Assembly (NCBI RefSeq): GCF_963921235.1
Contig: NC_086097.1
Coordinates: 70,930,001 to 70,994,000, forward strand
Direction: 5' to 3'
From: Mobula hypostoma
Taxonomy: Eukaryota
DNA length: 64,000 nt
How positions within the stretch are numbered: position 1 is the first letter of the stretch; the number at the start of each line of letters is the position of its first letter. The notes under the pieces are model-generated. The model did no database searches. It was not told where the DNA came from and was given only the letters and a program-made list of their open reading frames with translations. Both the position numbers and the translations under genes were made by a program. Below, one piece after another: positions 4,448-55,500 of the stretch.

Positions 4448-4483
4448 AGTCCTGACGAAGGGTCTCGGCCTGAAACGTCGACT
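4448..4483 (+). ncRNA. Minimal type I hammerhead ribozyme motif (Penelope terminus, right arm)
   Basis: AGTC (4448-4451), CTGACGA (4452-4458), short helix II, GAAAC, GTC (4477-4479), GACT (4480-4483). Confidence 0.8.
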
Positions 4484-4596
4484 GCACCTCTTCCTACAGA
4501 TGCTGCCTGGCCTGCTGCGTTCACCAGCAACTTTGATGTGTGTTGCTTGAATTTCCAGCATCTGCAGAATTCCTGTTGTTTACATTTGACTCTATC

Positions 4597-17617: not shown

Positions 17618-17907
17618 GTGAGTTGCAATGCCCGTTTCCACATCTCAGAATGCCAATTTTATAACGACCTTTGAAAACATCGCTTCTTGGTGATCAAGAA
17701 TAATTTTTGCTACAAAAACATTCTTGAGTATTCTATAAAATATATATGTTGCGTGATTATGTGTGAAATCTGTTCACGTTAGCGTTTAACCACATACGGT
17801 GCATTCATAGTCTATGCATTCCCAAACATTTTTCTCTGTAATTAGAACTAATTCAAACATCCCAGATGGAATTTTTGATTGAGTTGTGTGTTTTGTTTGT
17901 TTAATAG

Positions 17908-18106
17908 ATTTGCTTAGCCCTGGTGCAGAGGCAGATGTAGTGATGGAAGAAGGGAGTGATGACAATGACAGTGAAAGAAACAGTGCAATTATTGATGATA
18001 TGGAAGAGTCCATGTCGCATGACTCTGAAATGTTAATCACAGTGACCCACGGTGACAGTGGTGACATGCAGGACCATGAGCATGATGATGCAAACCGTGC
18101 AATAAG
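17908..18106 (+). CDS. PRKD1: PRKD1 internal exon (199 nt; acidic region)
   Basis: aatag|AT...ATAAG|gttagt. Translates (D)[34 protein letters not shown]...DANRAI(S). This acidic segment resembles PKD1 rather than PKD2 or PKD3. Confidence 0.95.
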
Positions 18107-24480: not shown

Positions 24481-25429
24481 TGACAAATGAAATGCAGAAA
24501 GTAACAAAAATTTGCTCTTAGTGATCTTAGATACGATAACATCTAAGATATGTTTGTGTTTGTTGTTGAAACTGCAGCACACTTGTTGTTTCCAAACAGT
24601 GTGCCTAATTTTTACCACTGGACATGCAGTCCCCAACCATGGCAAAAAATCTGCAATTTTATTGCCAGATTCTTGATTCATCAGGGCATGAAAGGAAATG
24701 GTGGGTGGGGGGGGGGAGTGTGAGGAGAGGAGGGAAATTAGGGCTGAGAGGAAAAATGGATCAGCCATGATGAAATGGCAGAGCAGACTCGATGGGCCAA
24801 ATCGCCTAATTCTGCTCCTATATCTTTTGGTCTTGTGGTCTTATGATAGCAAGATGACGGGATACTTGGGAATGGTATAGTGGAATCAGTTTGGGGTTGG
24901 ACGAGTGCTGGTAATGAAGAAAGGACAGATAATCAAAGAGGAAATGTATAAATTGAAACAAAATAATAAGAAAAAATTCAAGTTATGAGAAGAATAAATC
25001 AATCTTGAGTACAAAATTAGTGAAAGATACTGGAGACTGTTGGATCTTAATATATGAGAAAATAAATCGATAAATGGCTCATAAGAAATTTGTTCTGTTT
25101 GGCATTCACAGCATATCAATGAGAAAGATGCCACCATTGGAAACTCACTTAGAATATATTATCCTTTACTCATTAATTGTGGTGGAAAAATAGAATCAAG
25201 TAATGACTGTGGAATTTTGAAAAGAAAATGAATTAAGTGGTAGATTTTTCTCCTACCATATCAGATCAGGTTTGTCCCGCAATCTTTTAAAAATATAGAA
25301 ACACAAAAATTGTTGATACGTCCTGTTCTCAGAAGAAAACTGAAAATTGAAAAGAACTAAATTAAGTTCAATGGTGACAGGAAAATGCAGTAGTGCAGAA
25401 GGAAAAAACCAGAAAGGAGAAATTAAATG

Positions 25430-26619: not shown

Positions 26620-28330
26620 CATACACTTTTGAATCCACTATGAAAATGCATAGTTTATTTTCAATTCTGGAACAACCAACGCATAACTGACCATGGGAAA
26701 CACACTGTGATTCATGATTAAGGGCAACAACTTTTGGTGATTGCCCTTGTTAATGTTCATATGTCAAACTAAGTGAACCAGGGATCTGAAATCCCTTCCA
26801 TTGAAAAGGTAGATCAGATGGGTTAGCTGGTATCTGAGATGTGAAATATTTTATCAACAGCATTACTATTCATTAATGTCACCTTAATTACGTGTGATGG
26901 TAATTTTTCAACTGATAATTCTATGCTCCTGTATAGTATTGGCAGATCCAATTTCCTGCAGAGCATGATCAGAGATCCTTCTTTTAGTTCAAGATTATAT
27001 GATGGCACATGAGGTTGTGACAGACAGTCTAAAAATTAAACATGAGAAATTCTGCAGGTGCTGGAAATCCAAAGCAACACATACAAAATACTGGAGGAAT
27101 TCAGCAAGTCAGGCAGCATCTATGGAAATGAATAAACAGTCAACGTTTCGGGCCAAGACCCTTCCTTGGGACTAGAAAGGACGAGGGAAGACACTAGAAT
27201 AAAAAGTGGGGGAAGGGAAGGAGGCTGACTAGGAGGTGATAGACGAAGCCGGGTGAGTAGGAAAGATAAAGGGCTAGAGAAGAAGGAATCTGTTGGGAAG
27301 GAGAGTAGACCATAGGAGAAAGAGGAGGGGACCAGGAGGAGGTGAGAAGAGGTAAGAGGCCAGAGTGGGGAAGAAGAGGGGAGGGAAAGGAAATATTTTT
27401 ACTGGAAGGAGAAATTGTACAGGTCGTCTGAAAAACATTGAAAGGAGGTCTTTACTTTGTGGCCTGTGCTGCATCTTTTGTTTTTTTTGGTGCAGAAATT
27501 GCTCTTTTATGCAACCTTTGGTAATTCAAATAGTGTTGAATAACATTTGGAAAAAATGCTGGCATCAGAATGTGAAGTGATGTAACAATTTGGCCAAAAT
27601 TATTCATCTACTCATTCTGTTGAGTATTCATGTTTATTTCCCCATTTCCAAATTAGGGCAAATTGAAGCAAAATCCTTTGCAAATAGATTCCTGTCAAAT
27701 ACACTGGCATACTGGTTCTTCCAACTGTAATCATTTAAAATTTTCCCAAATATAGAATGCTTTAATGCAGGTTCTAGTATCTCATGCATTTACTGGTAGT
27801 GTTTAACAAAATTCTTCAGCTAACACTAAAGTACCAGCTCCCATTAATTTATTACTGTGTCTAGGTTTTTGCAACATTCATTCTGACGTTTCAGTGGCTG
27901 CTTTCTGAGCCATTCTATTCCATCCATCCCAGACAATGAGTTTATAACCTTTAGAAGTTTTTTTTCAGTGCAGTTCAGTTCCCTGGCCAATGTTGTATGT
28001 TGGAATCTGCATATTGACCTCATTTAAAAGGAGTTTAAAAGCATAGTATGCAGTTTCCCCCCACATTAACAACACTGAAGCAATGCCTAATGATGTCAAG
28101 ACCATAAGACACAGGAGCAGAATTAGGCCATTTGGCCCATCGAGTCTGCTTCTCAGTCAAGGCCACGCCAATCATCTTTTATCTTAAAACTCTAGCCAAA
28201 CGTAAATGAACAAGGGATGCCCCCATTTCACCAGAAGCAACAAAAGAATATTATTTGTTGCTCATTTTAATTAGTCTATGTAATAGTATGTAAGGCATTT
28301 CTTTGGTATCTCACAAAGCTTAGTTCTTTC
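26620..28330 (-). mobile_element. Fossil Helitron RepHel PIF1-family helicase, split by two later insertions
   Basis: Minus-strand remnants in the correct order: VASGEMG (Walker A-like), SLGIASVLL.WGETAYYAFKL, KLIVWDG (Walker B), MGAGTLVLAEEFC*TLPV, CIKAFYIW, KRAISAPK, PSYNLELKEGSLIML, PSDLPFQWK.FQIP, SHGQLCVGCSRI. Confidence 0.85.
27038..27417 (-). mobile_element. Penelope-like 3' end fragment inserted in the Helitron
   Basis: Terminus homologous to 4450-4580, with a degenerate hammerhead (AACGTTTCGGGCCAAGACCCTTC on +) and a purine-rich 3' UTR complement. Confidence 0.78.
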
Positions 28331-29036: not shown

Positions 29037-29374
29037 TATATCTTTGGATTAATTACATCACTGTTACAAAAGCGTCCAGACGTTGGAGAAGTAACAACGT
29101 AAAGGACACAACAAGTTCTAAATGCAATGCGAATAAGTTTCAATGAACACTTACAGAATTTAAAGCACCGCAATCTAACATTCTTGAAGGGGAAACTCGT
29201 TGAAACATGAGCTTTAACCAAGAAAGCCAATGTTTAGTCTCTTGGCAGAGCCACATACTAGGCAGAGTTAAATCTATGAACGACTATTTAAACCAACTCA
29301 TGGAAGGTTTTCCTTTCCAAGCAAATACTTGGATAATCTGTCAGAAAGAGCATTAAGGGAGAAATAATTTTTAT

Positions 29375-29910
29375 AGATACACTGTAGAAAGCATTCTTCT
29401 AGGGTGCATCACAACCTGGTATGGAAGTTGTCCTGTCCAAGACCGGAAGAAGCTGCAGAAGATCGTGAACACAGCCCAGCACATCACACAAACCAATCTT
29501 CCGTCCTTGGACTCACTTTATACTACACGCTCTCGGAGCAGTGCTGCCAGGATAATCAAGGACACGACCCACCCAGCCAACACACTTTTCACTCCTCTTC
29601 CCTCCGGGAGAAGGCTCAGGAGCTTGAAGACTTGTACGGCCAGATTTGGGAACAGCTTCTTTCCAACTGTGATAAGACTGCTGAACGGATCCTGACCCGG
29701 ATCTGGGCCGTACCCTCCAAATATCCGGACCTGCCTCTCGGTTTTTTGCACTACCTTACTTTCACTTTTCTATTTTCTATTTATGATTTATAATTTAAAT
29801 TTTTACTATTTATTATTGATTTGTATTTCAGGGAGCACGAAGTGCAGAATCAAATATCGCTGTGATGATTGTACACTCTAGTATCAATTGTTTGGCGACA
29901 AAGTAAAATA
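29375..29910 (+). mobile_element. Rex1/L2-group LINE 3' fragment
   Basis: VESIL..CITTWYGSC...RKKLQKIVNTAQHIT...HPANTLFTPLPSGRR..NSFFPTVIRLLN (ORF 29465..29695), followed by a 3' UTR. Confidence 0.8.
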
Positions 29911-30480: not shown

Positions 30481-30714
30481 GATGATATGCACCAGAAGGA
30501 GTGGCAGAATTTATTACTGAGCCAACAGGGAACTCATTGGTTATGCCTTTCTTAAAATTGCACCCATGTTTATAAAACTATTAATTGAAAAGTGCTACAA
30601 TAAAGTAAACAAAGTTCAAAGGAAGTTCAGTTAGAATTAACTTAAGAAATATATGACATCACCTTGAAAAAAATGTATTTCAAAATGATTTTGTTTTTCT
30701 TCTCTCTTCTTAAG

Positions 30715-30838
30715 CCCTTCCACAAGTAATAACATTCCTTTAATGAGAGTGGTACAATCTGTTAAACACACAAAGAGGAGGAGTAGCACTGTACTGAAGG
30801 AGGGCTGGATGGTTCACTTCACCAGCAAGGACAATCTG
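30715..30838 (+). CDS. PRKD1: PRKD1 internal exon (124 nt; start of PH domain)
   Basis: Polypyrimidine tract, then taag|C...CTG|gtaag. Translates (S)[41 protein letters not shown]. Confidence 0.96.
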
Positions 30839-35081: not shown

Positions 35082-35159
35082 AGAAAAAGACACTATTGGA
35101 GACTAGACAGTAAATGTATCACCCTCTTTCAGAATGATACAGGAAGCAAATATTACAAG
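35082..35159 (+). CDS. PRKD1: PRKD1 internal exon (78 nt; PH domain)
   Basis: tatag|AGA...AAG|gtaaag. Translates [26 protein letters not shown], phase 0 at both ends. Confidence 0.96.
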
Positions 35160-36639
35160 GTAAAGGTTTCGTTACTTGATTTTCTCAGTCAGACATTAAC
35201 ACTGAATAAATAATCTAAAATGATGCAAGCTAAATGTCAGTGAAAAGTTCCGGTTGAACTCTTGCTTTTATTCCAGTTTATTCCAGATGATCATTTAAAG
35301 CATCTTGGGTAGTTTAATAAGGATTAAATTTTAAAATAGTTACAGAAGTAAGCAAATCAAATTAACTTTTTTTTACATTGAATATCTACATCTGTACATC
35401 TACATTTAAAACATGAGTAATATGTAGGTTCCATACTGATCCACTTTGACTACAAAGGCAAAAGAAGATGCTTGTGATTTTTTAATAGCACTAAGCTAAA
35501 CACTGAAGAACAACAGAAATAAGTATTGCAACTTTATTGAGCTGCTGTCTGAAATATTTTAAAATGTGTTTCAAGAATTCTGCATAGCAGAAAATAGTAG
35601 TGCCCCCAAATATTATTTGTGGTTAACAAAAAAGCTACAACACATTTAAAGCCTTATTTTTTGTAAACAGAGGTGCTCAGCCCCAATTTACACTGCTCTT
35701 GTTGTAGTCTGTCAGTCTCAGAGGGCAACATGCTGTGATTCATAATTTAAGTCACTTTGACATGTAGAGGAATTATGTCATCATGGCACATTTCTGCCTG
35801 TGATTGACAGGTGGCATTGTAGACCTTGTGCTAACAGACGGTAAGTATCAATTTGTTAAAGTTAAAGGTTAACCAGTTACAAGTTTAAAATTAGCTTCAC
35901 AATTCCTTTTTGAAAAGTAGTTCAAGCTACTGCATTACTCATTTAAAAATATTGAGGCAGGCAGCTTTGAATTCCATTAAATGATGGAAACAACAATGTA
36001 TCAATAAAGATATTCCTTTATACTAAACAGCATAATAATATTGCATGTATATGTTGATTTAAACCTGTGAAAAATATTTTGATGCATATGTTATATTCCA
36101 ACATGTACACCTAATGTCATTCAAATGACAAAATAATGGGATATGACCAACTAATCTTAACACAGTGAGGGGAAAATTTGAAATGGGCTTCTATTAAGGT
36201 GGTTATCCTGTGAGATGTTTCTTTCTGGGGGGCAAATCCAAAGGATTATTTATTTTTCATACTGCAGCGAGCTGCATTGTAGGTATTACTTGGTGGCAGC
36301 AATTACGAGGTGCTAAACTGTGTTGGTTAGCCACAAATGGAAGGATGGTTACTTGAACTGGAATGTCAAGAAGGTTGAAACAATTGGCCTCTGTATGACT
36401 GGGCTGGCTGAAAAAAGGCTTCAGCCTTGAGCTTATTCCCTAGTATAACCACTGATTAAAAACATGCATGCTCATTACAGTGGAAGGAGGAGAAAAAATT
36501 CTTTTTATAAAATGCAACAATCTGATCTAGATTTTATCTACATACAATCTTTGAATCTGAACATGAAACCAAGGTAACAGTTTACTTAATTTATTGTGCT
36601 GGCAATTAAAGGTCATTTGTGAATGTACTTTAATTGCAG

Positions 36640-36919
36640 GAAATTCCACTATCTGAAATTTTATCTCTGGAACCTGGAAAGAACTTCGACTTAGTACCTG
36701 CTGGAGCCAATGCTCATTGCTTTGAAATTACTACTGCAAGTGTAGTCTATTTTGTTGGTGAAAATCTGACAAATGATTTGAGTACACAAAAAAACAACAG
36801 CCTGGTGTCAGGTGGCACAGGCTTGGATGTTGCCCAGTCATGGGAGCTAGCTATCCAACATGCCTTGATGCCTGTCATTCCGAAAGGTTCATCTGCGGGA
36901 TCAGTGCACAGCCTACACA
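36640..36919 (+). CDS. PRKD1: PRKD1 internal exon (280 nt; end of PH domain)
   Basis: ttgcag|GAA...CACA|gtaagt. Translates [12 protein letters not shown]...[19 protein letters not shown]...[18 protein letters not shown]...LH (ORF track 36634..36936). Confidence 0.96.
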
Positions 36920-37024
36920 GTAAGTTAAATGCCTGAAATTATCAAATACTTTCTGAAGTGTACTCCTTACCTTTGTATATTTATATAAAATGCACTGTAA
37001 GTGTTAAGTTATTTAAGTAGATCA

Positions 37025-38600
37025 CATGGGGAGCCAGGGAGAGCAAGCTCAGTGGATTAAAAAAATTGGTTCGATGGTAGGAAGCAGAGAGTGATGGTTG
37101 AAGGTTGTTTTTTGTTTTTCTCATTGACGGCCTGTGATCAGTGGTGAGCCGCAGGGATTGGCACTCGTCCTTATTTCAAAACAATTTGAATAAGAATGTT
37201 TCGAGGCATGGTTAGTAAGTTTGCAGGTGACAATGAAAGTGGTATTCTAGGCAATAAGGAAGGTTATCAAAGTTTACAAAGGGATCTTGATTAGATAGGT
37301 AAGTGGGCTGAGAAATGCAATCTAGACAAGTTTGAGGTGTTGCATTTTGGCAAGTCAGAACTGGGTAGGACTTTCACAGTGAACAATACTGCCATGTAAA
37401 GTGTTAAAGAACAGAGTGACTTAGAAATACAGGTACATAATTCTCTGAAAGTGGCATCACAGATGTTCAGGGTGGAGAGGAAGGTCTTTGCCATACTGGC
37501 CTTCATGAGTCAGGACATATAGGAGTTGGGATGTTATGTTGCAGTTGTATAAGACACTGGTGAGATCACACTTGGAGTTTTGGTTACTCTGTTCGGAAAG
37601 ATGCCATTAAGTTGGATACAGTGTAAAAAAGATTTATGGAAATATTGCTAGAACTTGAGGGCATTAATTACAGGGAGAGGTTGGGTACACAAAGATTTTA
37701 TTCTTTTAAGTGGAGGAGATTGAGGAGTGAAGATAGAATTAGAATATTTAAATCTTACAAACATCCCACAACATGAGGGAGTAAAAATTGTCGCATTATG
37801 ACTCTGATACAATGTACATACATGTGAGTGTATAAGTCCAACTGCTTGTAGAAGGAAGCTGTCCCGTAACTTGTTGGTCCTGGGTTTAATGCTGTGGTAG
37901 CGTTTGCCAGACAGAAGCAGCTGAAACAGTTTATGGTTGGGGTGACTGGTATCCCCAGTGATCTTCCAGGCCTTCTTTCTGCACCTGCAGTTATAAATGT
38001 CCTCAATGGAGGGAAGTTCACATCCATAGAATCACTGGGCTGTCATACCACTCTCTGCAGTGCCCAATAATCAACATTGGTGCAGTTCCTGACCAGGCAG
38101 TGATACAGCCAGTCAGTATGCTTTCAATTGTGCCCCTGTAGAAGGTCTTGAGAATTTGGGGGCCCATGCTGAACCTCTTCAGTCGCCTGAGGTGGAAGAG
38201 ATGCTGTCGTGCTTTTCTTGCCACAAAGCCAGTGTGTGCAGTTACAGAGGTATATAAAATCATGAGGGGCACAGACAGGCTGAATGGACCAAGTTTTTTT
38301 TCCGGAAAAGGGAATCAAAACCTTGATGACCTAGGTTTAAGGTGGGAGGGGTAAGATTTAAGAGAGACCTGAGAGGCAACTTCTTCACACAAAGGACGGT
38401 TCACAAATGGAGGAGGAAGTGGTTGAGGCAGGTACAGTTGAGAGACATTTGGACAGGTACGTGGATAGGAAAAGTTTGGAGGATATGGGACAAACGCAGG
38501 AAAAGGAGACTAGCTTCAATGGGCATTTTGATTGCATGGACAAGATGGATCAGGAAGCCTGTTTCTGTGTTGTATTGCTTTATAACTCTGTAACTCTATA
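37025..38600 (+). mobile_element. CR1-like LINE RT to 3' end, interrupted by a minus-strand Rex1/L2-group fragment at about 37740-38240
   Basis: PVISGEPQG and SKFAGD RT remnants. The CR1 text resumes at 38241 (EVYKIMRG.DR...FKRDLRGNFFTQR). The insert reads RKARQHLFHLRRLKRF...FYRGTIESILTGCITAW (38018..38272 -). Confidence 0.8.
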
Positions 38601-39469
38601 TTGATGATTTGATTGGAAATAATTCTAAGATTTGTATGTTATCATTCCTGAGGCCACACAAAGCAGTTTCACCTAGAGATCAAATAGACATTGGCTATGA
38701 TAATAGAAAACTCGTATTCATCGTCATATTGTTCATTAGAAATATGGTCAAACTTTTCATTTCAAGTCAGTACTTGAACAACAGTTTCAACATCTAGCCG
38801 AGAGAATGAAAATATAGTGTAAATCCAATGTTGGGGTGCAGTCTCCCCTATTGATTTAGCTTTTACCAATGCACTGGTGAGCTTCATTTGCATTTCATAA
38901 CCACTATGTAGTTTGACATCTGATTTGGACTGTTTTTAAACCCTAAATCAAGTCACAGCAATATTAAATGAAGTTGAAATGAATGAGATTTGCAATTCAA
39001 ATCTTCCTTGCTGGATGTAAATATTAAAAAAAACACTTTTTTTTCTTATAATCACCTTCATACCGATATTTACTCAAATCTTCAGGAGACCGAGTAAATT
39101 TTGTATCAGTATTGCTCAGGTTCTAGTGTGAATGTATGTTCGAACCTGTAACTATAGATTAAAAAATTGAATATTTGGAACTCTTGGTTGGAGGTTCCTA
39201 GGATGTGACCAGCAGATCTGGTTTGGAGCAGTCATTTTTTGTGGTAGTATTTGCAAATAGAACTGAATGGTAGGTTTGTACCTCTGGCCAGGTAGTGTGA
39301 ATGATGAGATGAAAGAAAATACTTACTCAGGGTACATGCTTTCATTGTATGAATTTCTTAATATAGTCAACCTGCAATAAAGTAAATATAACAGCTTGTG
39401 TTTAACTCATTGGAATAGATCTATTTTAAAAGTATTACGTTGCCAGCTTGCTTCTCCTTTTGTTACACA

Positions 39470-40130
39470 CTTAAAGTGGAAGAAGCTGACCCAATAGATA
39501 ATAATAATACCTGTGCCCAAGAAGAATGTGGTAACCTGCCTCAGTGACTATTGTCTGGTTGCACTTACATCCATTGTGATGAAGAGCTTTGGGAAGTTGG
39601 TATTGAATCATATCAACTCCTGCCTACTGTCACAACAGGTCGATGGCAGATGCCATTTCATTGGGTTCAACCGTGGAACATCTGGACAGTGAAAATGCAT
39701 ACAGCAGGATGCTCTCTGTTGACTACAGCTCTGCATTCATCACAACCATTCCCTCAAAAGCTCCAAGACCTAGGCCTCAATACATCCTTGTGCAAGTGGA
39801 TTCTCAATTTCATCACCCGCAGACCCGACTTATTTTGTATTGGCAACAATGTCGACTAAATAATCACCATCAGCACAGCTACACCACAGTGCTGTGCGCT
39901 TAGCCCCCGCTCTACTCAGTTTTTACTTATGACTGAGGCTAACCGCAGCTCCAGTGCCATATTTAATATTGCTAATGACACGACTGTTGTTGGCTGAAGC
40001 AAGGGTGGTGACCAATCAAAAGACTGAATCAGAGGGGATAGTTTCACTCACCCTAACAATGAACTGATTCCACAACCTATGGACTCTACAAGTCAGGTTC
40101 TCAATATTTATTATGTATTTATGTATTAAT
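39470..40130 (+). mobile_element. Rex1/L2-group LINE RT fragment
   Basis: [27 protein letters not shown] and RMLSVDYSSAF.TI (ORF 39643..39903). Confidence 0.78.
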
Positions 40131-40132
40131 AT

Positions 40133-40525
40133 TAAGTTCAAGTTCAATTGTCATTCAACCACATACATGTATGCAGCTAAACCTGCGGAGCAGTTTCGAT
40201 GGGCCAAATGAACTAATCCTGCTCCTATATCCTATGGTCTAAATGAAACAGCGTTCCTCTGAGGCCAAGGTGGAAAACACCGTACCTACAGTCACACATG
40301 GCACATGTAGATATGATAGCACTTAACAGTCATCAAATATATTAGCACAAGTCCCTAAGTGGCATGGTCTGAGGATTGATGGTACATGGAATATTGTCCT
40401 GGAGCCACGCTTCTTCAAGGACAAGCGCGCGACAGTTGCTCATCTCCGGCAGCGGCAGGCAAAGGCAATCCAGCTTGTCCTCCGGGAGCAAAAACTGAAG
40501 AGCAGCACCGATGGAAGAGCCCAGC
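40133..40525 (-). mobile_element. Internally deleted Rex1/L2-group element abutting the satellite
   Basis: ORF 40342..40584 (-) contains EDKLDCL.L...EMSNCRALVLEEAWLQDNIP, an APE endonuclease N-terminus (NK.D.L...C..L..TETWL). Tail-like (AAGTTC)n at 40134-40146. Confidence 0.65.
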
Positions 40526-43500
40526 CTCCAACCCAGCACGGATTTCAGCGTGCCACCGTGTCTCTGTTCCCTCCAACCCAGCACGGATTACACTGTGCCA
40601 CCGCGTCTCTGTTCCCTCCAACCCAGCACGGATTACACTGTGCCACCGCGTCTCTGTTCCCTCCAACCCAGCACGGATTACACTGTGCCACCGCGTCTCT
40701 GTTCCCTCCAACCCAGCACGGATTACAGCGTTCCACCGCGTCTCTGTTTTCTCCAACCCAGCGCGGATAACACCGTGCCACCGCGTCACTGTTCTCTCCA
40801 ACCCAGCACGGATTACACCGTCCCACCACGTCTCTATTCTCTCCAACCCAGCACGGATTACAGCGTGTCACTGTGTCTCTGTTCTCTCCAAACCAGCACG
40901 GATTACACCGTGCCACCGCGTCACTGTGCCCTCCAACCCAGCGCGGATAACACCGTGCCACCGCGTCACTGTTCTCTCCAACCCAGCACGGATTACACCG
41001 TCCCACCACGTCTCTATTCTCTCCAACCCAGCACGGATTACACCGTGCCACCGCGTCTCCGTTCCCTCCAACCCAGCACGGATTACAGCGTGCCACGGCG
41101 TCTCTGTTCCCTCCAACCCAGCACGGATTTCACCGTGCCACCGCGTCACTGTGCCCTCCAACCCAGCGCGGATTACACCGTCCCACCGCGTCACTGTTCT
41201 CTCCAACCCAGCACGGATTACACCGTCCCGCCGCGTCTCTGTTCTCTCCAACCCAGCACGGATTTCACCGTGCCACCGCGTCACTGTGCCCTCCAACCCA
41301 GCGCGGATTACACCGTCCCGCCGCGTCTCTGTTCTCTCCAACCCAGCACGGATTACACAGTGCCGCCGCGTCTCTGTGCCCTCCAACCCAGCACGGATTA
41401 CACCGTCCCACCGCGTCACTGTTCTCTCCAACCCAGCACAGATTACACCGTGCCACCGCGTCTCTGTGCCCTCCAACCCAGCACGGATTTCACCGTCCCA
41501 CCGCGTCACTGTTCTCTGCAACCCAGCACGGATTACACCGTCCCGCCGCGTCTCTGTTCTCTCCAACCCAGCACGGATTTCACCGTGCCACCGCGTCACT
41601 GTGCCCTCCAACCCAGCGCGGATTACACCGTCCCGCCGCGTCTCTGTTCTCTCCAACCCAGCACGGATTACAACGTGCCACCGCGTCTCTGTGCCCTCCA
41701 ACCCAGCACGGATTACAGCTTGCCACCGCGTCTCTGTGCCCTCCAACCCAGCGCGGATTACAGCGTGTCACTGCGTCTCTGTTCTCTCCAAACCAGCACG
41801 GATTACACCGTGCCACCGCGTCTCTGTTCCCTCCAACCCAGCACGGATTACAGCGTGCCACCGCGTCTCTGTTCCCTCCAACCCAGCACGGATTACACCG
41901 TTCCACCGCGTCTCTGTTTTCTCCAACCCAGCGCGGATAACACCGTGCCACCGCGTCACTGTTCTCTCCAACCCAGCACGGATTACACCGTCCCACCACG
42001 TCTCTATTCTCTCCAACCCAGCACGGATTTCACCGTGCCACCACGTCTCTATTCTCTCCAACACAGCACGGATTACAGCGTGCCACCGCGTCTCTGTGCC
42101 CTCCAACCCAGCACAGATTACAGCGTTCCACCACGTCTCTATTCTCTCCAACCCAGCACGGATTACAGCGTGTCACTGTGTCTCTGTTCTCTCCAAACCA
42201 GCACGGATTACACCGTGCCACCGCGTCACTGTGCCCTCCAACCCAGCGCGGATTACACCGTCCCACCACGTCTCTATTCTCTCCAACCCAGCACGGATTA
42301 CACCGTGCCACCGCGTCTCCGTTCCCTCCAACCCAGCACGGATTTCACCGTGCCACCGCGTCTCTGTGCCCTCCAACCCAGCACAGATTACAGCGTTCCA
42401 CCACGTCTCTATTCTCTCCAACCCAGCACGGATTACAGCGTGTCACTGTGTCTCTGTTCTCTCCAAACCAGCACGGATTGCACCGTGCCACCGCGTCACT
42501 GTTCTCTCCAACCCAGCACGGATTACACCGTCCCACCACGTCTCTATTCTCTCCAACCCAGCACGGATTACACCGTGCCACCGCGTCTCCGTTCCCTCCA
42601 ACCCAGCACGGATTACAGCGTGCCACGGCGTCTCTGTTCCCTCCAACCCAGCACGGATTTCACCGTGCCACCGCGTCACTGTGCCCTCCAACCCAGCGCG
42701 GATTACACCGTCCCACCGCGTCACTGTTCTCTCCAACCCAGCACGGATTACACCGTCCCGCCGCGTCTCTGTTCTCTCCAACCCAGCACGGATTTCACCG
42801 TGCCACCGCGTCACTGTGCCCTCCAACCCAGCGCGGATTACACCGTCCCGCCGCGTCTCTGTTCTCTCCAACCCAGCACGGATTACACAGTGCCGCCGCG
42901 TCTCTGTGCCTTCCAACCCAGAACGGATTACAACGTGCCACCGCGTCTCTGTGCCCTCCAACCCAGCACGGATTTCACCGTCCCACCGCGTCACTGTTCT
43001 CTCCAACCCAGCACGGATTACACCGTCCCGCCGCGTCTCTGTTCTCTCCAACCCAGCACGGATTTCACCGTGCCACCGCGTCACTGTGCCCTCCAACCCA
43101 GCGCGGATTACACCGTCCCGCCGCGTCTCTGTTCTCTCCAACCCAGCACGGATTACAACGTGCCACCGCGTCTCTGTGCCCTCCAACCCAGCACGGATTA
43201 CAGCTTGCCACCGCGTCTCTGTGCCCTCCAACCCAGCGCGGATTACAGCGTGTCACTGCGTCTCTGTTCTCTCCAAACCAGCACGGATTACACCGTGCCA
43301 CCGCGTCTCTGTTCCCTCCAACCCAGCACGGATTACACCGTGCCACCGCGTCTCTGTTCCCTCCAACCCAGCACGGATTACACCGTTCCACCGCGTCTCT
43401 GTTTTCTCCAACCCAGCGCGGATAACACCGTGCCACCGCGTCACTGTTCTCTCCAACCCAGCACGGATTACACCGTCCCACCACGTCTCTATTCTCTCCA

Positions 43501-46500
43501 ACCCAGCACGGATTTCACCGTGCCACCACGTCTCTATTCTCTCCAACACAGCACGGATTACAGCGTGCCACCGCGTCTCTGTGCCCTCCAACCCAGCACA
43601 GATTACAGCGTTCCACCACGTCTCTATTCTCTCCAACCCAGCACGGATTACAGCGTGTCACTGTGTCTCTGTTCTCTCCAAACCAGCACGGATTACACCG
43701 TGCCACCGCGTCACTGTTCTCTCCAACCCAGCACGGATTACACCGTCCCACCACGTCTCTATTCTCTCCAACCCAGCACGGATTTCACCGTGCCACCGCG
43801 TCTCTGTGCCCTCCAACCCAGCACAGATTACAGCGTTCCACAGCGTCTCTGTGCCCTTCAAACCAGCACGGATTACAGCGTGCCACCGCGTCTCTGTGCC
43901 CAAAAACCCAGCACGAATTACAGCGTGCCACCGCATCTCTGTGCCCTTCAACCCAGCGCGGATAACACCGTGCCACCGCGTCACTGTGTCTCTGTTCTCT
44001 CCAAACCAGCACGGATTACACCGTGCCACCGCGTCACTGTGCCCTCCAACCCAGCGCGGATAACACCGTGCCACCGCGTCACTGTTCTCTCCAACCCAGC
44101 ACGGATTACACCGTCCCACCACGTCTCTATTCTCTCCAACCCAGCACGGATTACACCGTCCCACCACGTCTCTATTCTCTCCAACCCAGCACGGATTACA
44201 CCGTCCCACCGCGTCTCCGTTCCCTCCAACCCAGCACGGATTACAGCGTGCCACGGCGTCTCTGTTCCCTCCAACCCAGCACGGATTACAGCGTGCCACG
44301 GCGTCTCTGTTCCCTCCAACCCAGTGCGGATTACAGCGTTCCACCGCGTCTCTGTTCCCTCCAACCCAGCGTGGATTACAGCGTGCCACTGCGTCTCTGT
44401 GCCCTCCAACCCAGCACGGATTACAGCGTGCCACCGCGTCTCTGTTCCTTCCAACCCAGCACGGATTACACCGTGCCACCGCCTCACTGTTCTCTCCAAC
44501 CCAGCGCGGATTACACCGTGCCGCTGCGTCTCTGTTCCCTCCAACCCAGCACGGATTACACCGTGCCACTGCGTCTCTGTTCCCTCCAACCCAGCACGGA
44601 TTACACCGTGCCACCGCGTCTCTGTTCTCTCCATCCCAGCACGGATTACAGCGTGCCACCGCGTCTCTGTTCCCTCCAACCCAGCACGGATTACACCGTG
44701 CCACCTCGTCTCTGTTCCCTCCAACCCAGCGCGGATTACAGCGTGCCACCGCGTCTCTGTTCCCTCCAACCCAGCATGGATTACAGCGTGCCACCGCGTC
44801 TCTGTTCCCTCCAACCCAGCACGGATTACAGCGTGCCACCGCGTCTCTGTTCCCTCCAACCCAGCACGGATTACAGCGTGCCACCGCGTCTCTGTTCCCT
44901 CCAACCCAGCACGGATTACACCGTGCCGTCGCGTCTCTGTGCCCTCCAACCCAGCACGGATTACAGCGTGCCACTGCGTCTCTGTGCCCTCCAACCCAGC
45001 ACGGATTACACCGTGCCACTGCGTCTCTGTGCCCTCCAACCCAGCACGGATTACAGCGTTCCACCGCGTCGCTGTTCCCTCCAACCCAGCACGAATTACA
45101 GCGTGCCACCACGTCTCTGTGCCCTCCAACCCAGCACGGATTTCACCTTGCCACCAAGTCTCTGTGCCCTCCAACCCAGCGCGGATTACACCGTGCCACC
45201 GCGTCTCTGTTCTCTCCAACCCAGCGCGGATTACAGCGTGCCACCACCTCTCTGTTCTCTCCAATCCAGCGCGGATTACACCGTGCCACCATGTCTCTGT
45301 GCCCTCCAACCCAGCACGGATTTTTCACCGTGCCACCACGTCTCTGTGCCCTCCAACCCAGCACGGATTTCACCGTGCCACCGCGTCGCTGTTCCCTCCA
45401 ACCCAGCGCGGATTACACCGTGCCGCCGCGTCTCTGTTCTCTCCAACCCAGCACGGATTACAGCGTGCCACCGCGTCTCTGTTCCCTCCAACCCAGCACG
45501 GATTTCACCGTGCCACCGCGTCGCTGTTCCCTCCAACCCAGCGCGGATTACACCGTGCCGCCGCGTCTCTGTTCTCTCCAACCCAGCACGGATTACAGCG
45601 TGCCACCGGGTCTCTGTTCCCTCCAACCCAGCACGGATTACACCGTGCCACCGCGTCTCTGTTCTCTCCAACCCAGCGCGGATTACACCGTGCCACCGCG
45701 TCTCTGTTCCCTCCAACCCAGCGCGGATTACAGCGTGCCACCGCGTCTCTGTTCCCTCCAACCCAGCGCGGATTACAGCGTGTCACCGCGTCCCTGTGCC
45801 CTCCAACCCAGCACGGATTACACCGTGCCACCGCGTCTCTGTGCCGTCGAACCCAGCACGGATTACAGCGTGCCACCGCGTCACTCTCCCTCCAAACCAG
45901 CACGGATTACAGTGTTCCACCGCGTCTCTGTGCCCTCCAACCCAGCACGGATTACACCATGCCACCGCATCTCTGTTCCCTCCAACCCAGCACGGATTAC
46001 ACCGTTCCACCGCGTCTCTGTTTTCTCCAACCCAGCACGGATTACAGCGTGCCGCCGCGTCTCTGTTCTCTCCAACCCAGCGCGGATTACAGCGTGCCAC
46101 CGCGTCTCTGTTCCCTCCAACCCAGCGCGGATTACAGCGTATCACCGCGTCCCTGTGCCCTCCAACCCAGCACGGATTACAGTATTCCACCGCGTCTCTG
46201 TGCCCTCCAACCCAGCACGGATTACAGCGTTCCGTTGCGTCTCTGTGCCCTCCAACCCAGCACGGATTACACCGTGCCACCGCGTCTCTGTGCCGTCGAA
46301 CCCAGCACGGATTACACCGTGCCACCGCGTCACTCTCCCTCCAAACCAGCACGGATTACAGTGTTCCACCGCGTCTCTGTGCCCTCCAACCCAGCACGGA
46401 TTACACCATGCCACCGCATCTCTGTTCCCTCCAACCCAGCACGGATTACACCGTTCCACCGCGTCTCTGTTTTCTCCAACCCAGCACGGATTACAGCGTG

Positions 46501-49500
46501 CCGCCGCGTCTCTGTTCTCTCCAACCCAGCACGGATTACAGCGTGCCACCGCGTCTCTGTTCCCTCCAACCCAGCGCGGATTACAGCGTATCACCGCGTC
46601 CCTGTGCCCTCCAACCCAGCACGGATTACAGTATTCCACCGCGTCCCTGTGCCCTCCAACCCAGCACGGATTACAGCGTTCCGTTGCGTCTCTGTGCCCT
46701 CCAACCCAGCACGGATTACAACGTGCCACCGCGTCTCTGTGTCCTCCAACCCAGCACAGATTACAGCGTTCCACCGCGTCTCTGTTCTCTCCAACCCAGC
46801 ACGGATTACAGCGTGCCACCGCTTCACTGTTCCCTCCAACCCAGCACGGATTACACCGTGCCACTGCGTCTCTGTGCCCTCCAACCCAGCACGGATTACA
46901 GCGTTCCACAGCGTCGCTGTTCCCTCCAACCCAGCACGAATTACAGCGTGCCACCACGTCTCTGTGCCCTCCAACCCAGCACGGATTTCACCGTGCCACC
47001 AAGTCTCTGTGCCCTCCAACCCAGCGCGGATTACACCGTGCCACCGCGTCTCTGTTCTCTCCAACCCAGCGCGGATTACAGCGTGCCACCACCTCTCTGT
47101 TCTCTCCAATCCAGCGCGGATTACACCGTGCCACCATGTCTCTGTGCCCTCCAACCCAGCACGGATTTCACCGTGCCACCACGTCTCTGTGCCCTCCAAC
47201 CCAGCACGGATTTCACCGTGCCACCGCGTCGCTGTTCCCTCCAACCCAGCGCGGATTACACCGTGCCGCCGCGTCTCTGTTCTCTCCAACCCAGCACGGA
47301 TTACAGCGTGCCACCGCGTCTCTGTTCCCTCCAACCCAGCGCGGATTACAGCGTGCCACCGCGTCTCTGTTCTCTCCAAACCAGCACGGATTTCACCGTG
47401 CCACCGCGTCGCTGTTCCCTCCAACCCAGCGCGGATTACACCGTGCCGCCGCGTCTCTGTTCTCTCCAACCCAGCACGGATTACAGCGTGCCACCGGGTC
47501 TCTGTTCCCTCCAACCCAGCGCGGATTACAGCGTGCCACCGCGTCTCTGTTCTCTCCAACCCAGCGCGGATTACACCGTGCCACCGCGTCTCTGTTCCCT
47601 CCAACCCAGCGCGGATTACAGCGTGCCACCGCGTCTCTGTTCCCTCCAACCCAGCGCGGATTACAGCGTGTCACCGCGTCCCTGTGCCCTCCAACCCAGC
47701 ACGGATTACACCGTGCCACCGCGTCTCTGTGCCGTCGAACCCAGCACGGATTACACCGTGCCACCGCGTCACTCTCCCTCCAAACCAGCACGGATTACAG
47801 TGTTCCACCGCGTCTCTGTGCCCTCCAACCCAGCACGGATTACACCGTGCCACCGCATCTCTGTTCCCTCCAACCCAGCACGGATTTCACCGTGCCACCA
47901 CGTCTCTGTGCCCTCCAACCCAGCACGGATTTCACCGTGCCACCGCGTATCTTTTCTCTCCAACCCAGCACGGATTACACCGTGACACCACGTCTCTGTG
48001 CCCTCCAACCCAGCACGGATTTCACCGTGCCACCACGTCTCTGTGCCCTCCAACCCAGCACGTATTTCACCGTGCCACCGCGTATCTGTTCTCTCCAACC
48101 CAGCACGGATTTCAGCGTTCCACCGCGTCTCTGTTCCCTCAAACCCAGCACGTTTACAGCGTGCCGCCGCGTCTCTGTTCCCTCCAACCCAGCACGGATT
48201 ACACAGTGCCGCCGCGTCTCTGTTCTCTCCAACCCAGCGCGGATTACACCGTGCCACCGTGACTCTGTTCTCTCCAACCCAGCACGGATTACACAGTGCC
48301 GCCGCGTCTCTGTTCTCTCCAACCCAGCACGGATTACACCGTCCCGCCGCGTCTCTGTGCCCTCCAACCCAGCACGGATTACAGCGTTCCGCTGCGTCTC
48401 TGTTCCCTCCAACCCAGCACGGATTACACAGTGCCGCCGCGTCTCTGTTCTCTCCAACCCAGCACGGATTACACCGTGACACCACGTCTCTGTGCCCTCC
48501 AACCCAGCACGGATTTCACCGTGCCACCACGTCTCTGTGCCCTCCAACCCAGCACGGATTTCACCGTGCCACCGCGTATCTGTTCTCTCCAACCCAGCAC
48601 GGATTTCAGCGTTCCACCGCGTCTCTGTTCCCTCAAACCCAGCACGTTTACAGCGTGCCGCCGCGTCTCTGTTCCCTCCAACCCAGCACGGATTACACAG
48701 TGCCACCGCGTCTCTGTTCTCTCCAACCCAGCGCGGATTACACCGTGCCACCGTGACTCTGTTCTCTCCAACCCAGCACGGATTACACAGTGCCGCCGCG
48801 TCTCTGTTCTCTCCAACCCAGAACGGATTACACCGTCCCGCCGCGTCTCTGTGCCCTCCAACCCAGCACGGATTACAGCGTTCCGCTGCGTCTCTGTTCC
48901 CTCCAACCCAGCACGGATTACACAGTGCCGCCGCGTCTCTGTTCTCTCCAACCCAGCGCGGATTACACCGTGCCACCGTGACTCTGTTCTCTCCAACCCA
49001 GCACGGATTACACAGTGCCGCCGCGTCTCTGTTCTCTCCAACCCAGCACGGATTACACCGTCCCGCCGCGTCTCTGTGCCCTCCAACCCAGCACGGATTA
49101 CAGCGTTCCGCTGCGTCTCTGTGCCCTTCAACCCAGCGCGGATTACAGCGTGTCACTGTGTCTCTGTTCTCTCCAAACCAGCACGGATTACACCGTGCCA
49201 CCGCGTCACTGTGCCCTCCAACCCAGCACGGATTACAGCGTGCCACCGCGTCTCTGTTCTCTCCAACCCAGCACGAATTACACCGTGCCACCGCGTCACT
49301 GTGCCCTCCAACCCAGCGCGGATTACACCGTGCCACCGCGTCACTGTTCTCTCCAACCCAGCACAGATTACACCGTGCCACCGCTTCACTGTTCTCTCCA
49401 AACCAGCACGGATTACACCGTGCCACCGCGTCTCTGTTCTCTCCAACCCAGCACGGATTACACCGTGCCACCGCGTCTCTGTTCTCTCCAACCCAGCGCG

Positions 49501-52500
49501 GATTACACCGTGCCACCGCGTCACTGTGCCCTCCAAACCAGCACGGATTACACCGTGCCGCCGCGTCTCTGTTCTCTCCAACCCAGCACGGATTACAGCG
49601 TTCCACTGCGTCTCTGTTCCCTCCAACCCAGCGCGGATTACACCGTGCCACCGCGTCTCCGTTCCGTCCAACCCAGCACCGATTAAACCGTGCCACCGCG
49701 TCACTGTGCCCTCCAACCCAGCACGGATTACAGCGTTCCACTGCGTCTCTGTGCCCTCCAACCCAGAACGGATTTCACCGTGCCACCGCGTCTCTGTGCC
49801 CTCCAACCCAGCACGGATTACAGCTTGCCACCGCGTCTCTGTGCCCTCCAACCCAGCACGGATTACAGCGTGTCACTGCGTCTCTGTTCTCTCCAAACCA
49901 GCACGGATTACACCGTGCCACCGCGTCTCTGTTCCCTCCAACCCAGCACGGATTACACCGTTCCACCGCGTCTCTGTTCCCTCCAACCCAGCACGGATTA
50001 CAGCGTGCCACCGCGTCTCTGTTCCCTCCAACCCAGCGCGGATTACAGCGTATCACCGCGTCCCTGTGCCCTCCAACCCAGCACGGATTACAGTATTCCA
50101 CCGCGTCTCTGTGCCCTCCAACCCAGCACGGATTACTGCGTTCCGTTGCGTCTCTGTGCCCTCCAACCCAGCACGGATTACACCGTGCCACCGCGTCTCT
50201 GTGCCGTCGAACCCAGCACGGATTACACCGTGCCACCGCGTCACTCTCCCTCCAAACCAGCACGGATTACAGTGTTCCACCGCGTCTCTGTGCCCTCCAA
50301 CCCAGCACGGATTACACCATGCCACCGCATCTCTGTTCCCTCCAACCCAGCACGGATTACACCGTTCCACCGCGTCTCTGTTTTCTCCAACCCAGCACGG
50401 ATTACAGCGTGCCGCCGCGTCTCTGTTCTCTCCAACCCAGCGCGGATTACAGCGTGCCACCGCGTCTCTGTTCCCTCCAACCCAGCGCGGATTACAGCGT
50501 ATCACCGCGTCCCTGTGCCCTCCAACCCAGCACGGATTACAGTATTCCACCGCGTCTCTGTGCCCTCCAACCCAGCACGGATTACAGCGTTCCGTTGCGT
50601 CTCTGTGCCCTCCAACCCAGCACGGATTACAACGTGCCACCGCGTCTCTGTGTCCTCCAACCCAGCACAGATTACAGCGTTCCACCGCGTCTCTGTTCTC
50701 TCCAACCCAGCACGGATTACAGCGTGCCACCGCTTCACTGTTCCCTCCAACCCAGCACGGATTACACCGTGCCACTGCGTCTCTGTGCCCTCCAACCCAG
50801 CACGGATTACAGCGTTCCACAGCGTCGCTGTTCCCTCCAACCCAGCACGAATTACAGCGTGCCACCAAGTCTCTGTGCCCTCCAACCCAGCACGGATTTC
50901 ACCGTGCCACCAAGTCTCTGTGCCCTCCAACCCAGCGCGGATTACACCGTGCCACCGCGTCTCTGTTCTCTCCAACCCAGCGCGGATTACAGCGTGCCAC
51001 CACCTCTCTGTTCTCTCCAATCCAGCGCGGATTACACCGTGCCACCATGTCTCTGTGCCCTCCAACCCAGCACGGATTTCACCGTGCCACCACGTCTCTG
51101 TGCCCTCCAACCCAGCACGGATTTCACCGTGCCACCGCGTCGCTGTTCCCTCCAACCCAGCGCGGATTACACCGTGCCGCCGCGTCTCTGTTCTCTCCAA
51201 CCCAGCACGGATTACAGCGTGCCACCGCGTCTCTGTTCCCTCCAACCCAGCGCGGATTACAGCGTGCCACCGCGTCTCTATTCTCTCCAAACCAGCACGG
51301 ATTTCACCGTGCCACCGCGTCGCTGTTCCCTCCAACCCAGCGCGGATTACACCGTGCCGCCGCGTCTCTGTTCTCTCCAACCCAGCACGGATTACAGCGT
51401 GCCACCGGGTCTCTGTTCCCTCCAACCCAGCGCGGATTACAGCGTGCCACCGCGTCTCTGTTCTCTCCAACCCAGCGCGGATTACACCGTGCCACCGCGT
51501 CTCTGTTCCCTCCAACCCAGCGCGGATTACAGCGTGCCACCGCGTCTCTGTTCCCTCCAACCCAGCGCGGATTACAGCGTGTCACCGCGTCCCTGTGCCC
51601 TCCAACCCAGCACGGATTACACCGTGCCACCGCGTCTCTGTGCCGTCGAACCCAGCACGGATTACACCGTGCCACCGCGTCACTCTCCCTCCAAACCAGC
51701 ACGGATTACAGTGTTCCACCGCGTCTCTGTGCCCTCCAACCCAGCACGGATTACACCGTGCCACCGCATCTCTGTTCCCTCCAACCCAGCACGGATTTCA
51801 CCGTGCCACCACGTCTCTGTGCCCTCCAACCCAGCACGGATTTCACCGTGCCACCGCGTATCTGTTCTCTCCAACCCAGCACGGATTACACCGTGACACC
51901 ACGTCTCTGTGCCCTCCAACCCAGCACGGATTTCACCGTGCCACCACGTCTCTGTGCCCTCCAACCCAGCACGTATTTCACCGTGCCACCGCGTATCTGT
52001 TCTCTCCAACCCAGCACGGATTTCAGCGTTCCACCGCGTCTCTGTTCCCTCAAACCCAGCACGTTTACAGCGTGCCGCCGCGTCTCTGTTCCCTCCAACC
52101 CAGCACGGATTACACAGTGCCGCCGCGTCTCTGTTCTCTCCAACCCAGCGCGGATTACACCGTGCCACCGTGACTCTGTTCTCTCCAACCCAGCACGGAT
52201 TACACAGTGCCGCCGCGTCTCTGTTCTCTCCAACCCAGCACGGATTACACCGTCCCGCCGCGTCTCTGTGCCCTCCAACCCAGCACGGATTACAGCGTTC
52301 CGCTGCGTCTCTGTTCCCTCCAACCCAGCACGGATTACACAGTGCCGCCGCGTCTCTGTTCTCTCCAACCCAGCACGGATTACACCGTGACACCACGTCT
52401 CTGTGCCCTCCAACCCAGCACGGATTTCACCGTGCCACCACGTCTCTGTGCCCTCCAACCCAGCACGGATTTCACCGTGCCACCGCGTATCTGTTCTCTC

Positions 52501-55500
52501 CAACCCAGCACGGATTTCAGCGTTCCACCGCGTCTCTGTTCCCTCAAACCCAGCACGTTTACAGCGTGCCGCCGCGTCTCTGTTCCCTCCAACCCAGCAC
52601 GGATTACACAGTGCCGCCGCGTCTCTGTTCTCTCCAACCCAGCGCGGATTACACCGTGCCACCGTGACTCTGTTCTCTCCAACCCAGCACGGATTACACA
52701 GTGCCGCCGCGTCTCTGTTCTCTCCAACCCAGCACGGATTACACCGTCCCGCCGCGTCTCTGTGCCCTCCAACCCAGCACGGATTACAGCGTTCCGCTGC
52801 GTCTCTGTTCCCTCCAACCCAGCACGGATTACACAGTGCCGCCGCGTCTCTGTTCTCTCCAACCCAGCGCGGATTACACCGTGCCACCGTGACTCTGTTC
52901 TCTCCAACCCAGCACGGATTACACAGTGCCGCCGCGTCTCTGTTCTCTCCAACCCAGCACGGATTACACCGTCCCGCCGCGTCTCTGTGCCCTCCAACCC
53001 AGCACGGATTACAGCGTTCCGCTGCGTCTCTGTGCCTTCAACCCAGCGCGGATTACAGCGTGTCACTGTGTCTCTGTTCTCTCCAAACCAGCACGGATTA
53101 CACCGTGCCACCGCGTCACTGTGCCCTCCAACCCAGCACGGATTACAGCGTGCCACCGCGTCTCTGTTCTCTCCAACCCAGCACAGATTACACCGTGCCA
53201 CCGCGTCACTGTGCCCTCCAACCCAGCGCGGATTACACCGTGCCACCGCGTCACTGTTCTCTCCAACCCAGCACAGATTACACCGTGCCACCGCTTCACT
53301 GTTCTCTCCAAACCAGCACGGATTACACCGTGCCACCGCGTCTCTGTTCTCTCCAACCCAGCACGGATTACACCGTGCCACCGCGTCTCTGTTCTCTCCA
53401 ACCCAGCGCGGATTACACCGTGCCACCGCGTCACTGTGCCCTCCAAACCAGCACGGATTACACCGTGCCGCCGCGTCTCTGTTCTCTCCAACCCAGCATG
53501 GATTACAGCGTTCCACTGCGTCTCTGTTCCCTCCAACCCAGCGCGGATTACACCGTGCCACCGCGTCTCCGTTCCGTCCAACCCAGCACCGATTAAACCG
53601 TGCCACCGCGTCACTGTGCCCTCCAACCCAGCACGGATTACAGCGTTCCACTGCGTCTCTGTGCCCTCCAACCCAGAACGGATTTCACCGTGCCACCGCG
53701 TCTCTGTGCCCTCCAACCCAGCACGGATTACAGCGTGCCACCGCGTCACTGTTCCCTCCAACCCAGCACGGATTACAGCGTGCCACCGCGTCTCTGTTCC
53801 CTCCAACCCAGCACGGATTACAGCGTGCCACCGCGTCTCTGTTCCCTCCAACCCAGCACGGATTACAGCGTGCCACCGCGTCTCTGTTCCCTCCAACCCA
53901 GCACGGATTACAGCGTGCCACCGCGTCTCTGTTCCCTCCAACCCAGCACGTATTACAGCGTGCCACCGCGTCTCTGTTCCCTCCAACCCAGCACGGATTA
54001 CACCGTGCCACCGCGTCTCTGTGCCCTCCAACCCAGCACGGATTACAGCGTGCCACCGCGTCTCTGTTCCCTCCAACCCAGCACAGATTACAGCATGCCA
54101 CCGCGTCTCTGTTCTCTCCAACGCAGCACGGATTACACCGTGGCATCGCGTCTCTGTTCTCTCCAACCCAGCACGGATTACACCGTGCCACTGCGTCTCT
54201 GTTCCCTCCAAACCAGCACGGATTTCAGCGTTCCACCGCGTCTCTGTTCCCTCCAACCCAGCACGGATTTCACCGTGCCACCGCGTATCTTTTCTCTCCA
54301 ACCCAGCACGGATTACACCGTGACACCACGTCTCTGTGCCCTCCAACCCAGCACGGATTTCACCGTGCCACCACGTCTCTGTGCCCTCCAACCCAGCACG
54401 TATTTCACCGTGTCACCGCGTATCTGTTCTCTCCAACCCAGCACGGATTTCAGCGTTCCACCGCGTCTCTGTTCCCTCAAACCCAGCACGTTTACAGCGT
54501 GCCGCCGCGTCTCTGTTCCCTCCAACCCAGCACGGATTACACAGTGCCGCCGCGTCTCTGTTCTCTCCAACCCAGCGCGGATTACACCGTGCCACCGTGA
54601 CTCTGTTCTCTCCAACCCAGCACGGATTACACAGTGCCGCCGCGTCTCTGTTCTCTCCAACCCAGCACGGATTACACCGTCCCGCCGCGTCTCTGTGCCC
54701 TCCAACCCAGCACGGATTACAGCGTTCCGCTGCGTCTCTGTTCCCTCCAACCCAGCACGGATTACACAGTGCCGCCGCGTCTCTGTTCTCTCCAACCCAG
54801 CACGGATTACACCGTGACACCACGTCTCTGTGCCCTCCAACCCAGCACGGATTTCACCGTGCCACCACGTCTCTGTGCCCTCCAACCCAGCACGGATTTC
54901 ACCGTGCCACCGCGTATCTGTTCTCTCCAACCCAGCACGGATTTCAGCGTTCCACCGCGTCTCTGTTCCCTCAAACCCAGCACGTTTACAGCGTGCCGCC
55001 GCGTCTCTGTTCCCTCCAACCCAGCACGGATTACACAGTGCCGCCGCGTCTCTGTTCTCTCCAACCCAGCGCGGATTACACCGTGCCACCGTGACTCTGT
55101 TCTCTCCAACCCAGCACGGATTACACAGTGCCGCCGCGTCTCTGTTCTCTACAACCCAGCACGGATTACACCGTCCCGCCGCGTCTCTGTGCCCTCCAAC
55201 CCAGCACGGATTACAGCGTTCCGCTGCGTCTCTGTTCCCTCCAACCCAGCACGGATTACACAGTGCCGCCGCGTCTCTGTTCTCTCCAACCCAGCGCGGA
55301 TTACACCGTGCCACCGTGACTCTGTTCTCTCCAACCCAGCACGGATTACACAGTGCCGCCGCGTCTCTGTTCTCTCCAACCCAGCACGGATTACACCGTC
55401 CCGCCGCGTCTCTGTGCCCTCCAACCCAGCACGGATTACAGCGTTCCGCTGCGTCTCTGTGCCCTTCAACCCAGCGCGGATTACAGCGTGTCACTGTGTC

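Follow-up and report, generated by a model that had tools for sequence, protein, structure and literature searches.

A 45-bp satellite array of Mobula hypostoma that probably arose in place from an adjoining LINE derivative

The window analyzed here, a 64,000-nucleotide stretch of Mobula hypostoma DNA (contig NC_086097.1, positions 70,930,001 to 70,994,000 of the forward strand), ends in a tandem array of a 45-bp unit which very probably originated in place from the transposable element that adjoins it, the unit being drawn from the element either whole or as part of a chimera. Comparison of three organisms, namely the source organism (A), a closer relative (B) and the most distant of the three (C), suggests a TE-derived array at a single locus, probably produced by antisense insertion of the element, a small tandem duplication and then a large and recent expansion. 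The features on which the analysis relies are as follows, in window coordinates:

17907-18106, 30713-30838 and 35082-35159, plus strand: sequence resembling protein kinase D exons (limits approximate)
36640-36920, plus strand: protein kinase D PH-domain exon (match over 36634-36933), the last before the element (E=1.1e-18 to 2d9z_A, 3.6e-16 to 2coa_A)
40134-40182, minus strand: 3' terminus of the element, including a short (TTGAAC)2 tail (40134-40147)
40183-40240, minus strand: 58-bp insert of a high-copy repeat, flanked by TAAA, present here in B and C and missing from other family copies
40241-40386, minus strand: last stretch of the ORF remnant, then the internal-deletion join (near 40339) and the element's 3' part, with paralogous contigs crossing the join
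40387-40517, minus strand: degenerate start of the apurinic endonuclease ORF of a LINE, from frameshift-aware alignment and profile
40525-40569, minus strand: edge unit of the array, its bases 40525-40554 continuous with the element in contig 27 of organism C

Tandem Repeats Finder reported 40525-64000 (plus strand) as a single 45-bp tandem array of 521.8 copies with 89% matches. The array is open at the window end, so that its 522 units and 23.5 kb are lower bounds. Most of the 521 complete units have 45 bp (502), the others having 44 bp (17), 47 bp (1) or 53 bp (1), and 155 distinct types were counted among the 502. The mean distance to the consensus is 3.17 of 45 bases and the unit-to-unit divergence 11.1%, with no gradient along the array. 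Identical units return at lags of 141, 87, 228 and 54 units, which reveals higher-order blocks, and an exact repeat of 2,316 bp recurs at the lag of 141 units (6,338 bases). The 502 units carry 65 variant alleles, of which 9 are singletons (0.04% per base) and 14 are each found in more than 25 units. Because singletons are few, common alleles many and the exact repeat long, these variants appear to be old and to have been multiplied recently. Variability is no higher at CpG than at other sites (0.070 each). The unit can form a hairpin, with a stem of 6 bp in the consensus and 5 bp in the edge unit; the stem is perfect in 110 of the 502 units and keeps five of six pairs in 235. Folding of the junction was no better than that of shuffles (z -0.25 and +0.42), while one three-unit stretch reached z -2.05 (3 of 200 shuffles). 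No function of the array is evident. A blastn search did not find the monomer in positions 1-40524 of the window (best E=2.1). The 19 off-length units all lie in 43946-59330, where three recurrent 44-bp types (8, 7 and 2 copies) mark duplicated blocks and are potential markers for allele typing. Two stop-free frames on the plus strand, 40499-48262 (2,587 codons) and 40380-44063 (1,227 codons), were rejected as genes; they reflect unit composition, since all three plus-strand frames of the unit are free of stops.

The edge unit is complete and differs from the consensus at three positions. Only 7 of the 35 bases preceding 40525 fit the periodic consensus, which is the chance level and indicates a sharp border. 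The original prediction had described a partial edge monomer blending into unique sequence; what we found is a full unit ending abruptly. On the element strand the LPS codons at 40517 follow immediately 3' of this unit, and the array is collinear with the element at this end. The peptides on which the prediction was built are present in the minus-strand sequence, but IRAGLEAG, ALPSVLLFSFCS and PEDKLDCL...WLQDNIP each lie in another of the three frames, so that the array runs unbroken into the endonuclease N-terminus as DNA and not as a peptide.

The identity of the adjoining sequence was established at the protein level. Frameshift-aware alignment placed 40517-40387 on the N-termini of two full-length ORFs, P0007 and P0035 (Pfam domains Exo_endo_phos, RVT_1 and PF09004); the alignment requires a -1 frameshift at position 40483 and, at 40447, a gap of 9 nt (three codons). 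Other family copies agree independently with this alignment, since they are longer by one letter at 40483-40486 and likewise longer at 40447, and a profile of 80 unique family segments matches the same frame (E=0.00024 for 6 frames). Alignment and profile both recognize the AP endonuclease N-terminus of the P0007/P0035-type ORF family at 40387-40517. This LINE family is putatively of Rex1/Babar type; the copy itself has no reverse transcriptase (RT). The better-kept LINE end at 29357-29692 (plus strand) retrieved 40 proteins, of which the three best, at 94%, 91% and 88% identity, carry names from Mobula hypostoma and Hypanus sabinus. A profile search with the family N-terminus returned 1,309 matches, and among the best 120 of these the named ones are teleost. 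Other searches were negative within their scope: Pfam on four window pieces gave nothing below E=0.29, a word-indexed protein search with the 58-aa junction frame gave 23 candidates and none significant, the ESM Atlas had no usable match, and Rfam over 39900-41000 had none at E up to 1. Two sets of candidates were discarded. A phmmer search of cluster representatives returned two repetitive proteins, alike by composition, and a metagenome pattern scan returned 13 loci that each match over only 20-26 bases, as expected by chance.

The family does have the basic stretch before the endonuclease motif that the prediction had described, which precedes LP[ST] in 117 of 160 retrieved proteins. The accompanying claim, that the monomer's own peptides resemble this stretch, did not rise above chance against non-ray family proteins, although these are distant relatives and the result is no refutation. 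Including the monomer did not raise the alignment score with either P0007 or P0035, since 200 of 200 shuffles scored at least as well in each case. In a position-specific test, 164 of 500 shuffles matched or exceeded the edge unit, and 124 of 500 a near-consensus unit. The word WLQ.NIP of the window occurs in none of the 160 family proteins compared.

The element copy at this locus keeps about 150 bp of the endonuclease ORF, lacks the ORF core and the RT, and joins 5' and 3' LINE parts; its true 5' end would be on the far side of the array. Its join near 40339 is crossed by insert-free paralogous contigs in A (X2 record 3), B (X5 records 10, 11 and 12; X6 records 18, 19 and 20) and C (X9 record 26), and joints connect the element tail to 40339; the element is therefore a multi-copy, internally deleted one and not the product of a local deletion. 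Summed depth over the 3' end (40134-40182) is about 3-7 times that over the ORF piece, and both the tail and the depth profile fit a LINE 3' end. The 3' part showed no match to either of two further LINE ends with RT that the window contains (26-182 of 200 shuffles as good). The host element appears to be a bipartite non-autonomous LINE derivative, putatively of Rex1/Babar type and possibly undescribed. The LINE coding segment first proposed as the source of the monomer can refer only to a position just upstream of the endonuclease motif, since this element was already non-coding, internally deleted and frameshifted. The repeat inserted at 40183-40240 is presumably CR1/SINE-like, and we regard it as an old insertion common to A, B and C at the locus. 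Loose contig ends behind 40182 and joints to 40239 attest its absence from other family copies. Ends of the same high-copy repeat occur in the window at 40183-40240, 24778-24835 and 28097-28156.

The exon-like stretches upstream belong to what we take to be a PKD1-like gene, and the window lacks two kinase-exon motifs. Given these upstream exons and the missing motifs, the element and array most likely lie antisense in the next intron of the protein kinase D gene, a placement predicted from sequence.

To compare the locus between organisms, words sampled from the flank 36400-40560 were sought in sequencing runs and recovered at shares of 0.85-0.89 in A, 0.42-0.45 in B and 0.05 in C, which corresponds to an identity to A of roughly 98% for B and roughly 91% for C. 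Contigs were aligned to 39980-40615 at 80% likeness for 4 of 15 runs, namely X2 (A), X5 and X6 (one B sample) and X9 (C). B and C are represented by one sample each, and C, at its word share of 0.05, enters only through aligned contigs, which speak for presence and not for absence. Just outside the array (40486-40507) the summed depth, which is not a copy number, was 363 in A, 546 in X5, 532 in X6 and 568 in C. Over the first two units (40530-40615, four bins) it was 4,884, 12,791, 17,810 and 5,676 in A, compared with 444, 171, 245 and 180 in X5 and 400, 84, 96 and 90 in X6. At 40574-40595, the 17,810 of A stands against 245 and 96 in B, about 73-186 times as much in runs of similar size.

A contig of 490 bp from B (records 9 and 17) spans 40136-40615 with 15 differences and no gap, and includes the 58-bp insert and two in-phase units. 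Depth over the B units is 7-13 times that of this locus contig (13 times in X5 and 8 times in X6 at 40574-40595). Among the rows listed, go-back joints occur in A and in both B runs, and none occurs in C. B therefore has a short array whose tandem state is directly visible and whose number of about ten units is a rough depth estimate. A minority T at 40559 of the A edge unit appears to be common to the B edge unit, as expected if the array border is frozen.

In C, many family copies extend from the ORF remnant 20-30 bases into unit 1; depth is 484 at 40508-40529, 216 at 40530-40551, 7 at 40552-40573 and zero over 40574-40615, leaving unit 2 uncovered. Record 25 covers 40030-40279 with the 58-bp insert, and contig 27 covers 40254-40554 in one piece, with 40 differences and 1 gap. 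For an orthology score of contig 27, 26 sites in 40254-40559 were available among the difference rows listed (40 of 151). Nine were dropped (five unscorable for contig 27, one outside it and three with the family letter in B) and 17 kept; the from_end column was taken as distance to the aligned end, a reading whose arithmetic is exact at 8 sites in record 27 and at 4 in record 9. Contig 27 is without the family letter at 11 of the 17 sites where the A and B orthologs lack it and has it at 6, compared with 4.1 expected of a random copy (P=0.0003 if the sites are independent). It crosses the indel sites at 40447 and 40483 like the window copy, and is one letter shorter than the window, so that the additional letter of other copies at 40483-40486 is apparently missing from it. 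Orthology is contradicted by one of the dropped sites, 40427. On this comparison of sequences, contig 27 is a probable ortholog, or at least a member of the same subfamily.

Of the 45 bases of the unit, 30 (40525-40554) are matched in C and the last 15 (40555-40569) are not. Depending on the strand convention of the contig table, contig 27 either stops at 40556 or runs on into 243 letters of other sequence. This leaves room for a unit that was born in place and yet is chimeric, in which the element supplied about 30 bp and rearranged local DNA or some other sequence the remaining 15 or so. Such a chimera would account for the drop in C family depth near 40552 (from 216 to 7) and for the end of the contig 27 match at 40554, and it would fit the lack of a significant match between the basic half of the predicted motif and the family proteins. 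The aligner, however, clips at modest indels, as seen at the 40447 deletion, where many family contigs end though the element continues, and a true match of the last 15 bp would be concealed by an indel near 40552. We consider a chimeric unit unlikely, with some room left for it.

It is more doubtful still that the repeat arose in another copy and reached this locus as a dispersed element-plus-array unit, like the multi-locus satellites derived from snake SINEs. Most squamate satellites of this kind retain one element end and occur at many loci (PMC10702118), so that an intact end is no proof of birth in place, and the very high depth in A could conceal further loci. Against dispersal, C has zero depth on unit 2, the total in B of 7-13 times the locus contig leaves little room for loci older than the split of A and B, and the insertion itself looks common to C.

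Very improbable is an older, unrelated satellite, beside which a 5'-truncated element landed or whose array invaded the element, with any likeness due to chance or microhomology. The sharp border and the chance-level peptide likeness would suit it, but in C, where unit 2 is uncovered, the match of many family contigs, and of the probable ortholog, extends 20-30 bases into the unit, continuously with the ORF remnant and far beyond microhomology, and this evidence largely refutes it. Finally, the array can scarcely be a truly short one lengthened by the assembly: the 2,316-bp exact repeat and near-identical blocks at the lag of 6,338 bases could be false duplication, but there are 155 distinct unit types, depth in the A run is about 73-186 times that of B runs of similar size, and contig depth is independent of the assembly, even if the A run may come from the window's own sample.

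For an array that originated in place from the adjoining element, we propose the following sequence of events. A short non-autonomous LINE derivative, consisting of an ORF start and a 3' end, would have inserted antisense in an ancestor of A, B and C, and would later have gained the 58-bp insert; the insertion is observed in A and B and is probable for C. After C had split off, 45 bp upstream of the endonuclease motif would have been tandemly duplicated and have grown to the roughly ten diverging units of the B state. Slippage, or repair aided by the GC-rich hairpin of the unit, might have been the trigger, for which the stem offers a hint. In the A lineage the array would then have grown to more than 500 units by unequal exchange or conversion copying blocks of 2-10 kb. 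Blocks of this size are observed, and the two processes are suggested by established knowledge. The allele spectrum and the exact repeat fit a small old array with about a dozen variants, followed by recent block copying, and by our own estimate ten units would have accumulated roughly that number of variants since C split off. A conceivable alternative to expansion in A is that the array contracted in B or that the B sample carries a short allele.

The original prediction of a single-copy 45-bp piece amplified in place thus draws support from the relatives' DNA, with 30 of 45 bases mapped, and none from the peptide motif. Instead of a single 500-fold step, the growth looks two-staged, with about ten units in B and more than 500 in A. 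It had also asked whether relatives carry the element with one copy: a single-unit state is suggested for C, where unit 2 has no depth, whereas B has at least two units.

LINEs are among the established sources of satellites (PMC12692304, section 4.1), while direct links between TEs and satellites are few according to the sSat authors (PMC10702118). In a human survey, 23% of filtered mini- and satellites are TE-derived, 601 of them from L1, and most are short and at a single locus (PMC3389668). The present array resembles these in that a retroelement segment was extended in place, that 5,747 of 5,932 human clusters are single-locus and that outgroups have fewer units. The human arrays are short, with means of 2.3-2.4 units for Alu-derived ones and examples of 15-17 units, in contrast to at least 522 units and 23.5 kb here; higher-order blocks, a non-L1 LINE source and a ray host are further differences from what is described there (PMC3389668).

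Squamate sSats share with this array units smaller than the element, a terminal stretch that reaches the element end and numbers of up to 1,000 units, as well as unit numbers that differ between orthologous loci of close species (PMC10702118). They differ in their tRNA-derived SINE source, in units of 70-290 nt, and in being multi-locus with a subtelomeric tendency (PMC10702118), whereas the present array has a 45-bp unit from the ORF-start region of a LINE derivative, is intronic and is known from one locus. The sequence adjoining it is a LINE endonuclease remnant and not the tRNA-headed SINE that characterizes the squamate type.

The host element can likewise be compared with bipartite non-autonomous LINEs such as Bov-A, RIME and NARTc, for which Kojima 2018 lists only RTE, Ingi, Vingi and R2 as origins (PMC5786205). 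Like the elements treated there, it joins a LINE 5' part to a 3' end, has a short repeat tail and is multi-copy; it differs in keeping about 150 bp of the endonuclease ORF and in a clade, putatively Rex1/Babar-type, that is absent from that list. With Rex1/Babar LINEs (PMC6274825) it shares AP endonuclease and RT in the matching proteins and a short oligonucleotide repeat after the 3' end. The present copy, in contrast, is without RT, carries a frameshift and a deletion, and has a 3' part unmatched to the two other LINE ends of the window. A search of mostly open-access literature on Mobula satellite DNA and on elasmobranch retrotransposon or tandem-repeat satellites found no paper.

We regard the array as a well-traced example of an already known route of satellite birth. 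What gives it value is the apparent three-stage series at one intron, together with a possibly undescribed bipartite host family: source element, unamplified state and intermediate are apparently all visible at one locus, which is a scarce combination. Old unit variants together with very recent block duplications make the rate and mechanism of growth measurable; the array lengthens a signalling-gene intron by more than 23 kb, and the host element may add Rex1/Babar-type to the LINE clades that form bipartite non-autonomous families. A bolder reading, which we put forward tentatively and rate below an even chance, is that one orthologous intron preserves satellite birth in three living stages (1, about 10 and more than 500 units) from an undescribed bipartite Rex1/Babar-type element. 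If true, it would provide a population-testable model of satellite birth.

The window holds further retroelement sequence. RT-bearing LINE fragments of the same general family lie at 29357-29695 (plus strand), 37755-38314 (minus strand) and 39498-39994 (plus strand), the first of which shares 88-94% identity with proteins that ray genome annotations assign to host genes as parts of them. At 1001-2478 and 3022-4545 there are inverted copies of a retroelement end, 92.6% identical over 1,531 bp and each with a short 52-bp tandem repeat, which we presume to be GIY-YIG-like and of Penelope type. An AT-rich LINE remnant of another family, with RT-like stop-free frames, occupies 8681-10059 (plus strand).
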